Assembly: GCA_029858565.1 (NCBI GenBank)
Contig: JAOUEV010000006.1
Location: forward strand, 32,001 to 96,000
DNA length: 64,000 bases
From: Nitrospirota bacterium
GTDB lineage: Bacteria > Nitrospirota > UBA9217
Direction of reading: 5' to 3'
Shown: positions 29,565 through 49,055 of the stretch, one piece after another
Layout: each line of letters starts with the position of its first letter
Position numbering within the stretch: position 1 is the stretch's first letter
Translations under genes and position numbers: made by a program
Notes under the pieces: model-generated
The model's database searches: none
The model's input: only the letters and a program-made list of their open reading frames with translations
Told to the model about the DNA's origin: nothing

Positions 29565-29909
29565 ATGAGAAAACTGAACTGTTGGGAATTCAAAAAATGC
29601 GGCCGGGGGCCCAGTGAAGCGAGAGCGGGGCAGGTCCTCTGTCCGGCGGCGTCCATGGCGGCGCTGAACGGCGTGCACGGCGGGATGCAGGGTGGGCGGT
29701 CCTGCTGGATCGTCGAGGGGACGCTGTGCAGCGGCAAAAAGAGCAGGCCGTTCAAGGAGAGATTCCATTCCTGTTCGTATTGCGACTTCTACCGGATGGT
29801 GATGCAGGAGGAGGGCGCCGCATTTGTCCTGTCGTCCGTCCTGCGCAGCCGGGTGGAGATAAGAACTGACGCCGAGCAGGACAAGTATTCCATGCGCATT
29901 GCAGCATGA
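29565..29909 (+). CDS. Two-CW domain protein (7 Cys conserved with its paralog)
   Basis: LNCWEFKKCGR...CPAA...NGVHGG..GGRSCW...GTLC...CSYCDFY; paralog at 42392-42754. Confidence 0.85.
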   Translation: MRKLNCWEFKKCGRGPSEARAGQVLCPAASMAALNGVHGGMQGGRSCWIVEGTLCSGKKSRPFKERFHSCSYCDFYRMVMQEEGAAFVLSSVLRSRVEIRTDAEQDKYSMRIAA

Positions 29910-29935
29910 TCGAATTCCTGAAGAGGAGGCAAGCC

Positions 29936-30457
29936 ATGAGCACCGCAACCATAACCGGAATGACGCAATATCTGACCTACACGCTGGCGGACGAGGTGTT
30001 CGCCCTGGACATCGGGAAAGTGCGCGAGGTCCTGGACTTCACCACGGTGACTAAAGTGCCGAATATGCCGGATTTCATGCTCGGAGTGATCAACCTCCGG
30101 GGAAGCGTGGTGCCGGTGGTGGACCTGCGGACCCGGTTCCGCATGCCGCGGAACGAGCAGACGGTGAATACGTGCATTATCATCACCGAGGTGCGGATCG
30201 ACGGGGACACCACGGTGCTGGGCTGCCTGGCGGACTCGGTGCAGGAGGTGCTGGATTTGGAAGCGAACCAGGTCGAGCCGGCGCCGAAGATCGGGACCAA
30301 GCTGCGAAACGAGTTCATCCAGGGCATGGGGAAGCACGGCAACCGATTCATCATCATCCTGGACATTGACAAGGTGTTTACCGTTGATGACGTGGCGCTT
30401 GTGGCGGAACTGGGCGCGGCGGCCGAGTGTCCCCTTGTCCACCATCAGGCTGCTTGA
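29936..30457 (+). CDS. cheW: Chemotaxis coupling protein CheW
   Basis: QYLTYTL...GVINLRGSVVPVVDLR...GCLADSVQEV...FIIILDIDKV; RBS GAGGAGG. Confidence 0.95.
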   Translation: MSTATITGMTQYLTYTLADEVFALDIGKVREVLDFTTVTKVPNMPDFMLGVINLRGSVVPVVDLRTRFRMPRNEQTVNTCIIITEVRIDGDTTVLGCLADSVQEVLDLEANQVEPAPKIGTKLRNEFIQGMGKHGNRFIIILDIDKVFTVDDVALVAELGAAAECPLVHHQAA

Positions 30458-30766
30458 AAAAGAACGCGCGCCGCCGCGGAGCCTAAACGGTGAATGGCCG
30501 GGTCTATCATTCAATTATCATCATTCACACCTGGCACCTCAACGCCCGGTTTTCCGGAGGCCCTCGGCGGCGCGCATGGACCGAGAACAAAAGCATCGAG
30601 GAGGGCTGCGATGATCAGATTGCAGGGAAGCCGGGCCGTTGACAGGCAGTTCCACAAGGACAGATATATACCGGTCAGGCGGCTGGCAACCTGGATGCAG
30701 GCCGCGCCTGCCGACACGCGCCCGGCGGGAAGGAGAAACCGCATACCCTGGAGCGAGGTAGTAAGA

Positions 30767-31162
30767 ATGAAGACCATATTGCTGATAGACAACAATGTAG
30801 AGCATCTTTTGCAGCACAGCGAGCTCCTGGGGCGGTCCGGCTACCGGATCGTGACCGCGCAGGACTCAAAAGCGGCGCTGTTCATCCTGGAAAGCGGCAT
30901 GCTCCTTGACCTGATCGTGACCGAGTGCCAGATGCCGGACATGGGTGCCCAGGAGTTCCTGGCGGCGATCAGGAAAGAGGCGCCGTCGGTGCCGGTGGTC
31001 GTCGTGACCAGCTGCGACTCGGTGGAATCTTATCTGAACGCGGTCGGCATCGGCGTCTATGAATATCTGAACAAGCCGTTGCTGCCGGGAGAGTTGAGCA
31101 GCATAATAAAGATGGTCGCCAGGGACCGCCGGTGCGGCAGTTTGCCGACCGGCTTGGCATGA
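30767..31162 (+). CDS. Atypical stand-alone receiver domain (phosphoacceptor Asp replaced by Glu)
   Basis: MKTILLIDNN...DLIVTECQMPDM...EYLNKP; RBS GAGG; paralog at 45758-46147. Confidence 0.85.
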   Translation: MKTILLIDNNVEHLLQHSELLGRSGYRIVTAQDSKAALFILESGMLLDLIVTECQMPDMGAQEFLAAIRKEAPSVPVVVVTSCDSVESYLNAVGIGVYEYLNKPLLPGELSSIIKMVARDRRCGSLPTGLA

Positions 31163-31172
31163 GGAGGGATCA

Positions 31173-46422: not shown

Positions 46423-46444
46423 GGGATCCTCTTCCTGCCGCGGT

Positions 46445-46582
46445 CTATGCCGCGGCCACGGTTGCCTCCGGCATGCCGGAAGCAACGTCGGCCAGGGCCA
46501 GTTCGTCGCCCGAGAACACTCTGTCAATGTCCAGGATGATCAGGAAGCGGTCACCCTGTTTCCCCATGCCGCGGATGAAATC
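46445..46582 (-). pseudogene. cheW: C-terminal remnant of cheW
   Basis: DFIRGMGKQGDRFLIILDIDRVF matches EFIQGMGKHGNRFIIILDIDKVF of CheW at 29936; begins about 10 nt after the MCP stop. Confidence 0.85.
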
Positions 46583-46592
46583 CGTAGTAGAT

Positions 46593-48650
46593 CTAGTAGC
46601 ACACGAAGTCTTTGTCCTTCCCGTCACCCTTGTCGTGGCCGGTGCGGCCTGGCTGTCCGAGGTGGATCTCCACACCCGCGGCTGGCGGGGTCTGCGGGAC
46701 CGACGCCTTGGCCGTTTTTACTGCGGCATGGGCCAGGTTGGCGACAGGCGCTTTATGCTCATGCCGTGCCGGGATCGTCGCTTTTGGCGCGATCTTCCTG
46801 CCGCTCCGTTCGGCGGCCTCCACCTTGAAGAATGATATGGTTTCCTTGAGCTGCTCGGCCTGGGAAGAAAGCTCTTCCGACGTCGAGGACATTTCCTCGG
46901 CCGCGCCCGCGTTCTGCTGGACCACCTGGTTCAACTGCTGGATGGAACCGTTGATCTGGTCCGCGCCGCTGGCCTGCTCCTTGCTCGCGGCGCTGATCTC
47001 CTGCACCAGTTCCGCGGTCTTCTGGATGTCGGGCACCAGTTTCGTCAGCATGGCCCCGGCCCGCTCCGAAACACCGACGCTCGACGCGGAGAGCTTGCTG
47101 ATCTCCCCGGCGGCCGTCTGGCTGCGCTCGGCGAGCTTGCGCACTTCCGCCGCCACCACGGCGAAGCCCTTGCCGTGTTCGCCTGCCCGGGCTGCTTCGA
47201 TAGCCGCGTTCAGGGCGAGCAGGTTCGTCTGGCGGGCGATTTCCTCGATGATGGAGATCCTGCTTGCGATGTCTTTCATGGCGGCCATGGCCTCGTTCAC
47301 CGCCTTGCCGCTCTCGATCGCGTCGGCCGCGGACTTGAGGGCGATCTTCTCCGTCTGCATGGCGTTGTCCGCGTTCTGGCGGATCGTGGCGTTCATCTCC
47401 TCGATGGACGAGGACGCCTGCTCGGTGGAAGCAGCCTGTTCGGTGGCGCCCTGGGACATCTGTTCCGCGCCCGAGGAGAGTTGCTGGCTGCCGCTCGACA
47501 CGTTGTCCGCAGCGGTCATGACGTCGCCTACGACGCTCCGGAGCTGGTCGAGCATCGCTGCGAGCGATTTGCCGAGAATGTCCTTGTCCGAAAGGACCAT
47601 CACATTCCCCCGTAGTTCGCCGCCGGCTATCGCCTCGGCAGCCTGGGCAAGCGCCCGGAGGTTCTGGACCGCCTTGTTCAGGCTGGCGACGATCCTGGCG
47701 ATCTCGTCCTGGCGCTCGGCAACCACCTCGATCGAAAGGTCTCCTTCGCTGAAGGCATCGAGCTTGCTGACCAGCAGGGCAACCTGACGCTGGAGATAGT
47801 CGCGCTGCTCGTCCGCCTCCTGCTGGAGTCGCTTGACTTCCGTAATGTCGATGACCACCTCCATGCCGCCGTAGGGTTTGCCCTGCTCATCGAGGAGCGG
47901 CGAACAGGCGGCCTGCACCGGGATCTTCTTGCCGGACCTGGATTCGGCCACTGTCTCGCCGATGATCGCCTGGCCCGTGCGGAAACAGTTCTTAAGCGTG
48001 CAGTTGTCCGTGCCGCAGAGGGGCGTTCTGCAGAGCTGGGCGCAGGTCATTTTGCCCACGACCTCTTCCCGCCGGTATCCCATGGCGTTCAGGGCAGCGT
48101 CGTTGATCGACTTGATCAGCAGGTCGCGGTCGGTAACGAACATCGGCGCCGCGATGGACCTGAGGATGTTGTCGATTTCCCACTTGGCACGCACCACGTC
48201 GGTCTGGTCGATGATCACTTCCATGCCGCCGTAGATGTTCCCCTGGGCGTCCTTGAGGGGGGAGCAGGCGGCCTTGATGGGGATTTTTTTGCCGTCCCGC
48301 GTCTCCGCCACGGTTTCGCCGATGATCGTGTTGCCCGTGCGCATGCAGTTCTTGAGCGTGCAGTTGTCCGTGCCGCAGAGCGGGGTCTTCGCCAGCTGGG
48401 CGCAGGTCATCTTCCCGATCACTTCATCGCGCTGGTAACCCAGGGCCTTGAGGGCCGCATCATTGATCGCGGTGATCATCAGGTCCCGGTCGACCACGTA
48501 GATCGGCGCCGCGCTGAAGGTCAGGACCGAATCAGAGCGGATGCTCTTCCAGTGATTGTCGACGCGGTTTATTGCCGAAAGAGGCTTGCGCTTTCGGTGG
48601 CTGCTATGACCGTTCGCTTTCTTGTCCGCTGTCTTCAACAATGCTTTCAT
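46593..48650 (-). CDS. Cytoplasmic MCP with two Cys-rich PAS domains and HAMP
   Basis: No TM segment; duplicated PAS with [22 protein letters not shown]; signalling domain [35 protein letters not shown]. Confidence 0.95.
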
Positions 48651-48719
48651 GATGAACCTCCTGATATTGTAATAGTGCTGTTTATCGACGACGAACATCC
48701 TGCGGAGTTTTCTGTCCGC

Positions 48720-49055
48720 TCATCGCATCCTCCATACACATCCTTCATCCGTTTCAATGCCGCATCCCGCACAGGGGGCGTACGAGTCCTTCGCGGCTCT
48801 GAGGAACAGGTCCGGGCTCGGGCCGGCGACGACAAAATCCTTGTGCTTCGTTCGCGACAGCCGGTAGGCGGCGCACAGGATCTTCACGCAGTCCGGATCA
48901 ACCGCGGTCACCTGCTCGCAGTCCACGATCAGCCGTCCTGTGCGGTCCAGCGCGCGGCGAAGGTAGATCTTGAGCGTCTCGGCATAGTGGCGGGAAAGGT
49001 TCACCGGGAGCGTCAGCACCGCGACCGCGCCTGTGTCCTTCACCTCGAAATCCAT
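48720..49055 (-). CDS. STAS-like protein with Cys-rich tail
   Basis: VLTLPVNL...LIVDCEQVTAVD..CVKILCAAYR; C-terminal CAGC...CVW; RBS GGAGG. Confidence 0.8.
   Translation of the reverse strand: MDFEVKDTGAVAVLTLPVNLSRHYAETLKIYLRRALDRTGRLIVDCEQVTAVDPDCVKILCAAYRLSRTKHKDFVVAGPSPDLFLRAAKDSYAPCAGCGIETDEGCVWRMR

Follow-up and report, generated by a model that had tools for sequence, protein, structure and literature searches.

Chemosensory pathways are usually composed of a methyl-accepting chemotaxis protein (MCP), the adaptor CheW, the kinase CheA, and CheY. CheV is a fusion of CheW and a receiver (REC) domain, and CheV receivers are phosphorylatable. In the Wsp system of Pseudomonas, a CheA-type kinase phosphorylates a REC-GGDEF cyclase, and the output is cyclic diguanylate (c-di-GMP). 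Here, we analyzed a stretch of 64,000 nucleotides (hereafter the window) from a Nitrospirota bacterium of the lineage UBA9217 (GenBank assembly GCA_029858565.1, contig JAOUEV010000006.1, positions 32,001 to 96,000 of the forward strand). Two gene cassettes in inverted orientation, designated A and B, encode chemotaxis-type receptors and adaptors together with receivers that carry Glu at the phospho-acceptor position, small four-Cys proteins (CPF, or CPY in B), and a Cys-rich two-CW protein. Our preferred explanation, to which we assign an even chance of being correct, is that the receptor/adaptor pairs feed in trans a CheA encoded on another contig (C41) of the same genome and share a transcript with a c-di-GMP phosphodiesterase module that works independently of phosphorylation and is probably gated by redox state or metal.

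The cassettes resemble Wsp in that MCPs and CheW adaptors are encoded with a receiver-linked c-di-GMP enzyme, which suggests a second-messenger output rather than flagellar switching. They differ from Wsp in having no kinase, in that a separate Glu receiver is accompanied by a four-Cys partner, and in that the enzyme is an HD-GYP phosphodiesterase. As in pseudo-receivers, the receiver fold is kept and the phosphorylation chemistry is lost. In cassette A and in a third cassette (contig C6), the receiver gene comes directly after CheW, an arrangement that resembles a split CheV; unlike in CheV, the Glu substitution recurs with a dedicated four-Cys partner, which is fused to the receiver in some genomes. 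The HD-GYP domain with its HD and GYP motifs is shared with the RpfG-type REC-HD-GYP proteins (NF053512, 'response regulator c-di-GMP phosphodiesterase, NosR family'). In contrast to these proteins, the cassette enzyme is 947 residues long and has PAS/GAF sensors and a degenerate receiver-like N-terminus, and the intact-looking receiver is the separate Glu protein.

Two further systems are comparable at the level of single parts. An excerpt of PMC12654446 describes CheS, a STAS protein in the che operons of the alpha-proteobacteria Sinorhizobium meliloti and Agrobacterium fabrum, as binding CheA and altering the handling of CheY. The ordinary operons of the family studied here (CheY-STAS-CheA) likewise contain a small STAS-only protein next to CheA, and the cassette STAS proteins are paralogs of these. 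However, the cassette STAS gene precedes an MCP without CheA and its product has a Cys-rich C-terminal tail. The likeness to CheS considered here is one of operon context. The PAS domain of OrpR from Desulfovibrio vulgaris is described, in an excerpt of PMC8359166, as binding a redox-sensitive [4Fe-4S] cluster through C52, C61, and C65. OrpR and the cassette receptors both have a cytoplasmic PAS domain with conserved Cys residues, which are spaced as Cx8Cx3C in OrpR and as Cx8Cx4Cx4C in the cassettes. The likeness considered here is at the level of the PAS fold. The cassettes have four Cys residues instead of three, and their output is an MCP instead of a sigma-54 activator.

Of the protein families involved, Che, STAS, CheD, receiver, and HD-GYP are established, and NCBIfam already has a name for the two-CW domain. 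Both two-CW proteins of the window score far above the cut-off of the corresponding model (NF045718), which merely names the domain, and a full-text literature search for the domain returned no relevant paper. No description of a CheA-less HD-GYP/CheW operon of this type was found in the titles and abstracts searched. New here are a conserved gene order that lacks CheA and combines a Glu receiver with its own four-Cys partner, the CPF family, and the breadth of the two-CW fusions. A first-pass annotation of the window could not match the cassettes to a described class of system; we regard them as an unusual variant of a known signaling scheme, not as a wholly new system.

The domain assignments are based on a listing and translation of the open reading frames (ORFs) of the window, which were scanned with Pfam and NCBIfam (Table 1). 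The proteins of cassettes A and B were compared with each other by blastp, and copies of all cassette parts were sought by tblastn of the contigs of the same genome (G000), in which the window is part of contig C88; G008 to G062 denote genomes of relatives in the family. The shared parts of A and B are, as judged from these alignments, clearly paralogous: the two-CW proteins are 49.5% identical over 107 residues, the receivers 46% over 115, the MCPs 65.7% over 382, the STAS N-termini 33% over 42, and CPF2 and CPY 34.7% over 49. The receivers match PF00072 with 62.5 and 65.6 bits and the MCPs match PF00015 with 119.5 and 114.6 bits. The first-pass annotation had recognized two inverted paralogous cassettes without CheA, CheB, or CheR. 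Pfam, NCBIfam, and blastp bear out the paralogy, and Pfam and NCBIfam detected none of the three Che proteins inside either cassette. No HATPase, Hpt, or H-kinase_dim match was found in any gene of A, B, or the C6 copy. The accompanying list of shared parts holds for the two-CW, receiver, MCP, and small Cys proteins, but CheW of cassette B is reduced to approximately 45 C-terminal residues and STAS of cassette A is a deletion remnant. Several genes are tightly packed, with ATGA overlaps of the two-CW stop and the CheW start and of the CPF1 stop and the CheD start in A, and of the CPY stop and the receiver start in B.

Table 1. Features of cassettes A and B, followed by neighboring genes in the window
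Feature	Position	Strand	Basis
Cassette A: stand-alone two-CW protein, 114 residues, 7 Cys	29565..29909	+	NF045718, 88.4 bits (cut-off 35)
Cassette A: CheW, 183 residues	29906..30457	+	PF01584, 128.5 bits, model positions 1-135 of 138
Cassette A: single-domain Glu receiver, DN not DD, DLIVTE	30767..31162	+	PF00072 and alignment
Cassette A: secreted-looking protein, 249 residues, no known family	31173..31922	+	Signal-peptide-like start
Cassette A: 4HB-HAMP-MCP, 630 residues	31985..33877	+	Pfam
Cassette A: unk159, 159 residues, uncharacterized	33933..34412	+	No Pfam or NCBIfam match, even at E = 5
Cassette A: CPF1, small 4-Cys protein, 76 residues	34519..34749	+	47.5% identical to C6 copy (tblastn)
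Cassette A: CheD, 174 residues, 4-Cys insert, within ORF 34464-35270	34746..35270	+	PF03975, 65.9 bits (cut-off 25)
Cassette A: remnant ORF, STAS N-terminal ~50 codons and 3' half of third small-Cys gene (CPFx)	35314..35550	+	Comparison with C6
Cassette A: CPF2, small 4-Cys protein, 76 residues	35576..35806	+	63% identical to C6 copy over core alignment
Cassette B: STAS, 111 residues, CheS-like	49055-48720	-	PF13466, 37.2 bits (cut-off 29.2)
Cassette B: PAS-PAS-HAMP-MCP, 701 residues, Cx8Cx4Cx4C in each PAS	48698-46593	-	Pfam
Cassette B: CheW remnant, last ~45 residues	46592-46445	-	Directly after MCP stop; tblastn, 58% over A-CheW residues 131-166
Cassette B: CPY, small 4-Cys protein, 92 residues, GTG start	46422-46144	-	Alignment with CPF
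Cassette B: single-domain Glu receiver, DLVIME	46147-45758	-	PF00072, inside ORF 46384-45758
Cassette B: degenerate-REC/PAS/PAS/GAF/GAF/HD-GYP, 947 residues	45705-42862	-	PF13487, 146.6 bits
Cassette B: stand-alone two-CW protein	42778-42392	-	NF045718, 92.7 bits; likely ATG 24 bases inside ORF
Context: REC-PAS-PAS-HisKA_3 histidine kinase upstream of cassette A	25007..28132	+	Pfam
Context: NarL/LuxR-type response regulator upstream of cassette A	28163..28813	+	Pfam Response_reg and GerE
Context: low-GC insert (GC 0.46-0.49) with MerR/HicB-like, DUF3800, 557-residue ankyrin-repeat, and Bro-N genes; outside the system	37755..42270	+	GC, Pfam
Context: CheA of a different Che system, unlikely cassette partner	61898..63892	+	Pfam

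The third copy, on contig C6, is fuller and unites parts of A and B in one string, in the order two-CW (degraded), CheW, Glu receiver, unk159, CPF1, CheD, full STAS, an 86-residue CPF, CPF2, Glu receiver, and PAS/GAF HD-GYP. Because its order unites the parts of both window cassettes, cassette A is a C6-type copy with an inserted MCP and secreted protein and minus the distal receiver/HD-GYP. In A, approximately 340 bp is absent relative to the intact C6 paralog, which joins codon ~50 of the STAS gene to the middle of the third small-Cys gene, and the STAS remnant has no Pfam match. Comparison with C6 ruled out that the C-terminal half of STAS A continues in another frame. In the two-CW gene of C6, both CW motifs are gone and a TAA is present, so that it fails two-CW membership; an internally deleted MCP lies just upstream. 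Because each of the three copies carries a recent lesion, they are probably partly redundant; the lesions are complementary, so that each part is intact in at least one copy. Contigs from run X1 (another assembler, possibly the source sample) span both window lesions with 0 differences, and those of runs X2, X3, and X5 match conserved pieces of the locus only. Lesions aside, the 17 other ORFs in A and B are open, with a coding-type G+C content at third codon positions (GC3) of 0.66-0.84. The ratio of nonsynonymous to synonymous substitution rates (dN/dS) is 0.14-0.48 in the 13 of 14 paralog/ortholog pairs for which it could be computed (one was saturated), and these figures are rough because several dS values exceed 1.5 and are near saturation.

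To survey the B-type operon, the 947-residue HD-GYP protein was used as a marker in 64 genomes of the family, 17 of which gave a match at E ≤ 1e-60. Near-full-length orthologs were found in three of the 63 other genomes, namely G062 (65% identical), G014 (51%), and G015 (50%). The operon of G014 reads STAS, PAS-MCP, CheW, CPF, REC, HD-GYP and adjoins a glycogen phosphorylase gene, as in the window. That of G062 reads PAS-MCP, CheW, CPF, REC, HD-GYP, MCP, the contig ending upstream, and that of G015 reads STAS, PAS-MCP, CheW, HD-GYP, CPF-REC. The B-type gene order is thus held in three other genera, and CheW is full-length in all three operons. Orthologs of STAS B are present in G014 (47%) and G015 (36%). 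The PAS-MCP of G014 (L034:9308-11384) consists of two overlapping ORFs, 9308-10258 and 9519-11384, which may reflect a frameshift or a sequencing error. The HD-GYP protein of cassette B has both the HD and the GYP motifs ('HDVGK' and 'GKGYPDG' in the translation) and is predicted to hydrolyze c-di-GMP. The link to cyclic-dinucleotide turnover that was first suggested is supported through this enzyme. The parts recur outside the locus and the B order recurs in three other genera, but the cassettes are not one portable module: STAS, MCP, CheW, and CheD are paralogs of a Che operon, the two-CW gene is a promiscuous accessory, and unk159 was found only in this genome.

The Glu substitution (DLIVTE in A and DLVIME in B), which the first-pass annotation had noted in both cassettes, extends beyond them. 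In the alignment, Glu occupies the phospho-acceptor position and DN or DP replaces the DD pair in the receivers of A, B, both C6 copies, G014, G015, G012, and G062. By comparison, the four CheY-like controls have both DD and D; the Thr and Lys positions are retained in the Glu receivers. Phosphorylation of a receiver needs the phospho-acceptor Asp and the acidic pair, whose positions were set by the alignment with CheY-like proteins, and the cassette receivers therefore cannot be phosphorylated in the usual way. The ORF of receiver A (30494-31162) is open from 30494, and its likely start is M92.

This pseudo-receiver recurs beside CPF, whose consensus is MxCP[FY]-x8-C-x16/17-C-x7-10-C-xxY; most members have a YVPSxFExxEYC core. 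The CPF profile detected members in 28 of 61 genomes, including 24 of the 36 in the family, and in a library of 1.84 billion proteins it found 756 representatives (142 at E ≤ 1e-10), nearly all of which are 55-100 residues long. CPF corresponds to no Pfam or NCBIfam family, and its profile gave 0 matches at E ≤ 1 against the PDB sequences. For CPY, the ESM Atlas returned 'hypothetical protein' clusters only, with scores of 0.84-0.85, which is chance level. In G015, CPF and the Glu receiver are fused in a single ORF of 194 residues, and two further CPF-REC fusions among the representatives (P0183 and P0236) are <50% identical to each other. A complex prediction for the B receiver and CPF, run without controls (score 0.00, mark 0.32), speaks neither for nor against binding. 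In the 20 CPF loci fetched in relatives, an RpoS-like sigma gene abuts CPF in 6 (six genera), a single-domain receiver lies within two genes in 8, and CPF follows a kinase/regulator pair in 9 and a PAS-MCP or CheW in 3; 5 loci have none of these, and the categories overlap.

On the input side, the alignment of 26 two-CW sequences has 18 invariant columns, which include both CW pairs and 7 Cys residues. The family occurs in 42 of 61 genomes (33 of the 36 in the family), with up to 14 members per genome, and in none of 14 control genomes. A signaling gene lies within three genes of two-CW in 14 of the 17 loci examined, a count made without a background control (20 loci were fetched, and the ORF was uncalled in 3). 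A search for longer proteins found the domain in 426 proteins of 390-2000 residues, where its fusion partners are Ser/Thr kinases (with cNMP-binding and PP2C domains), GGDEF domains, class-3 cyclases, histidine kinases, MCPs, HD-GYP, and PilZ. Among the 120 two-CW proteins listed (P0001-P0120), 111 of the 126 domains start within the first 60 residues, and the domain is C-terminal in the three MCPs checked. Unexpectedly, a large group of these matches are NAD-dependent epimerase/dehydratase proteins of ~486 residues, a partner outside signaling. The AlphaFold2 model of the two-CW protein has a mean predicted local distance difference test score (pLDDT) of 70.5. Its best Foldseek match in the PDB has an E-value of 2.7, VIA-align gave a best Z of 2.1 over 48,161 chains, and the profile had 0 matches to the PDB at E ≤ 1. 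These searches assigned no fold, which is not proof of a new one.

The Cx8Cx4Cx4C motif was found in all 13 PAS domains of the seven related receptors (7/7), one of which is encoded inside a CheA operon. When aligned to DosP, the PAS Cys residues fall in the cofactor-helix region.

The Che-like parts of the cassettes have counterparts in the ordinary Che operon of the family, which in G014 reads CheY-STAS-CheA-(MCP)-CheW-CheR-CheD, with shorter forms in G008, G013, and G031. In the genome studied here, contig C41 carries STAS-CheA-MCP-CheW-CheR; after these come genes for a hybrid kinase, for a receiver, and for a REC-HD-GYP regulator. The latter matches NF053512 at 7e-58, which is below the cut-off of that model, and the cassette enzyme matches the same model at 1.7e-40 over its HD-GYP part. 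The cassette STAS proteins align with the CheA-linked STAS proteins, Cys-rich tail included, and the 4-Cys insert of CheD is also present in CheD of the G014 operon. Because ordinary CheA-operon copies carry them, the STAS and CheD Cys sets are traits of the whole Che class. The earlier remark that nearly every uncharacterized member has a conserved Cys cluster is therefore valid for several members with invariant Cys sets, but the STAS and CheD motifs are not specific to the cassettes. The sequences show the cassette STAS, MCP, CheW, and CheD to be paralogs of the normal Che operon of the family. In CheD A, the GSC and H motifs line up with those of other CheD proteins, and deamidase activity is a prediction only.

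The genome contains many dispersed MCP-CheW pairs. Nine MCPs, including those of A, B, and the C41 operon, are 56-94% identical over their last 340 residues and collinear without indels. In contrast, the MCPs beside the two CheA genes of C88 are ~30% identical to the cassette MCPs and 21 residues longer per arm. When MCP A was aligned with structures of Escherichia coli Tsr (E 6e-49), two symmetric 7-residue gaps were observed, which correspond to one heptad less per arm; we take Tsr to be of the 36H class and the cassette MCPs to be of the 34H class. CheW A is 61-83% identical to the CheW proteins paired with the nine short-class MCPs and 26-34% identical to those of C88; it is 82% identical to the C6 copy and 63% to CheW of the C41 CheA operon. 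Eight of the nine short-class MCPs end in a conserved acidic-aromatic tail, D/E-E/D-F-x-K/C-F/Y (46593-46620 of the window in B), which is reminiscent of the pentapeptides that tether CheR/CheB. MCP A (33850-33877) ends in EFLKAS, without a terminal aromatic residue.

The first-pass annotation had suggested the CheA at 61898 of the window as the partner of the cassettes. It is 41% identical to the C41 CheA, and we ruled it out as the best partner candidate because the neighboring CheW and MCP are 26-35% identical to those of the cassettes and the MCP is of the longer heptad class; a check of the MCP heptad class places the cassettes with the C41 CheA operon. All four genomes with a B-type operon (G000, G014, G015, and G062) have a C41-type CheA, 52-60% identical, and we therefore know of no B-type operon without such a kinase. 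If the cassette receptors use a kinase, it is, as judged from these comparisons, of the C41 type and not the CheA of the window. The locus around the latter (L025, G000:C88:92000-110962, window 60209 onward) contains genes for a DUF4388 protein, CheY, CheA, an AAA_22 protein, CheW, two multihaem cytochromes, an MCP, a second CheW, and a 663-residue HEAT-repeat protein. A second C41-type CheA (G000:C86:500-2611 and 2709-2978), which is 52% identical, has an in-frame TAA and a STAS gene just upstream; this locus may be another decaying Che operon.

In our preferred explanation, the cassettes would be CheA-less offshoots of the family's own Che operon. Because the MCPs share the helical-length class of the C41-operon MCP, the receptor/adaptor pairs would join C41 CheA arrays in trans, as other scattered MCP-CheW pairs presumably do. 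The inputs would be of the redox or metal type, namely the PAS domains with Cx8Cx4Cx4C and a two-CW sensor translationally coupled to CheW. From the gene order, overlap, and fusion, all of which are observed, we infer an output module in which CPF, bound to or fused with the Glu receiver, is followed by the PAS/GAF HD-GYP enzyme. The metal or thiol state of CPF, and not a phosphoryl group, would set the conformation of the receiver, and the receiver would modulate the phosphodiesterase. Because the C41 Che operon ends in an ordinary REC-HD-GYP regulator, c-di-GMP hydrolysis is a normal output of this pathway, and the cassettes would be hard-wired, kinase-free versions of it.

Several observations weigh against this explanation. 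The assignment to the C41 CheA is based on sequence likeness, not on binding. The operon is rare, being present in three of the 63 other genomes and in none of three congeners (86-97% complete). The two-CW gene is not in the operon of G014, G015, or G062, and unk159 is essentially confined to its own genome. None of the three copies is undamaged: CheW is missing from B; STAS, one CPF, and HD-GYP are missing from A; and in C6 the two-CW gene and the adjacent MCP are broken. The near-saturated dS values weaken the dN/dS argument, and no RNA run is among the sequencing runs listed as holding the locus. In addition, because CPF in relatives lies mostly beside two-component or RpoS-like sigma genes and not beside Che genes, its primary partner may not be the phosphodiesterase.

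A rather unlikely alternative is a self-contained complex without a kinase, in which a PAS-MCP/CheW lattice docks the CPF-loaded Glu receiver and the HD-GYP enzyme, and receptor conformation gates c-di-GMP hydrolysis without CheA. Consistent with such a complex, the six genes have a single order and strand in three other genera, and the set includes no gene for a kinase. Its receiver lacks the phospho-acceptor Asp and one residue of the acidic pair, which leaves nothing for a kinase to act on, and STAS stands ahead of the MCP here, where ordinary operons have it ahead of CheA. However, a C41-type CheA is found wherever the operon is (4/4), the MCP class is indistinguishable from that of the CheA-operon MCPs, and the B copy of this genome has lost CheW, which the complex should need. 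We also count against it that, to our knowledge, a CheA-independent output of a chemoreceptor array is without precedent. A broader proposal, which we likewise consider improbable, is that the conserved operon is an array output that needs no CheA, in which the pseudo-receiver, loaded with CPF, responds to the lattice of receptor and CheW or to a metal center of its own and switches the phosphodiesterase directly, and that two-CW is a widespread Cys/metal sensor for many outputs.

It is also doubtful that the cassettes are redundant fragments of Che operons that are being lost and do not at present function as a unit. The lesions found in each of the three copies would fit this explanation, and the X1 contigs confirm both window lesions, which are thus not an artefact of one assembler. 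The sporadic distribution (3/63) and the in-frame TAA in the second C41-like CheA on C86 point in the same direction. On the other hand, the 17 undamaged ORFs keep a coding-type GC3, and paralogs at 35-82% amino acid identity with dN/dS in the range given above require long purifying selection. The same order across genera and the complementary lesions, with every part intact somewhere, also argue against decay. A local duplication in decay had been named in the first-pass annotation as the finding that would undo its reading; it is partly true, as all three copies have lesions, but the co-occurrence of the parts in other genomes speaks against it.

A partner-switching module consists of a STAS antagonist, an anti-sigma kinase, and a PP2C phosphatase. 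The abutting RpoS-like genes of the sigma-70 family in 6 of the 20 CPF loci, usually with a receiver and downstream of a kinase/regulator pair, together with a sigma-CPF protein (P0137) and a sigma ortholog in this genome (C102:21119-22084, 62-69% identical), could indicate that CPF is a metal- or redox-sensitive regulator, of the anti-sigma or anti-adaptor type, of an RpoS-like sigma factor, with the Glu receiver and STAS as its partners in the switch; the Che and HD-GYP genes would then simply lie in the same operon. STAS proteins are indeed classically anti-sigma antagonists according to the excerpt of PMC12654446. We nevertheless consider this very unlikely, since none of the three cassettes (A, B, and C6) contains a sigma gene or an anti-sigma kinase (HATPase_c_2) or PP2C gene, the sigma gene of this genome has no CPF beside it, the cassette CPF genes overlap CheD or receiver genes and not STAS, and the cassette STAS proteins fall together with the ones encoded ahead of CheA. 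The CPF-adjacent sigma genes (L027, L028, L032, L035, L036, and L046) score 313-343 bits to RpoS models, below the cut-offs, and the CPF segment of P0137 spans residues 324-367; in such loci CPF may regulate an RpoS-like sigma factor.

If the preferred explanation, with the C41 kinase and a phosphorylation-independent output, is true, chemotaxis-type receptors of anaerobes would have been rewired to c-di-GMP control without phosphotransfer, and a metal- or thiol-dependent mini-protein on a pseudo-receiver would replace the phosphorylation switch. Independent of this reading, CPF and two-CW are two unstudied, testable families. Both are small, Cys-rich, and easy to express, and assigning a cofactor would annotate many signaling proteins in sulfate reducers and in other anaerobes.

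Cassettes A and B are separated by an RNase J gene and the low-GC insert. The insert resembles a mobile island or one of phage origin and may lie at a point of rearrangement. Scans of 29300-49299 gave 9 promoter-like sites (6.7 ± 2.9 expected) and 15 terminator-like sites (17 ± 4 expected), from which no operon boundaries resulted. The secreted-looking protein of cassette A (31173-31922) had been labeled a beta-barrel; this label could not be verified, since the protein has no Pfam or NCBIfam match even at E = 5. It has a paralog on contig C131 (76% identical) and no similarity to the PF13557 outer-membrane protein encoded at the equivalent position on contig C80. The C80 locus (L012, G000:C80:1-10036) has the order kinase, NarL-type regulator, two-CW, kinase, regulator, MCP, PF13557 protein, MCP fragment, CheW. 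There, the two-CW gene overlaps at its stop with the start of a HisKA_3 kinase gene, and the kinase/regulator pair is of the type found upstream of cassette A (25007-28813).

For unk159, paralogs were found on C6 (43%) and, weakly, on C74, and a search of 61 genomes detected it in 2, its own and one with a marginal match (E 0.008). Its AlphaFold2 model (pLDDT 50.3) is too poor for use. The C74 locus (L048, G000:C74:44000-56000) encodes a kinase, a sigma-54 regulator, an MCP, an unk159-like protein, STAS, and a 1138-residue PAS/GAF sensor with kinase-like matches, so that the unk159-STAS adjacency recurs there without CPF, CheD, or HD-GYP.

Elsewhere in the window, two giant proteins are encoded on the + strand. 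The first, with 2398 residues (1261-8457), has 13 DUF5122 beta-propeller repeats and Big_13, Big_6, and fn3 domains and is a probable surface protein. The second, with 2286 residues (16115-22975, GC 0.43-0.47), has SpvB, TcdB_toxin_midN, FG-GAP, and RHS-repeat matches in the Pfam scan and is an Rhs/Tc-like protein.

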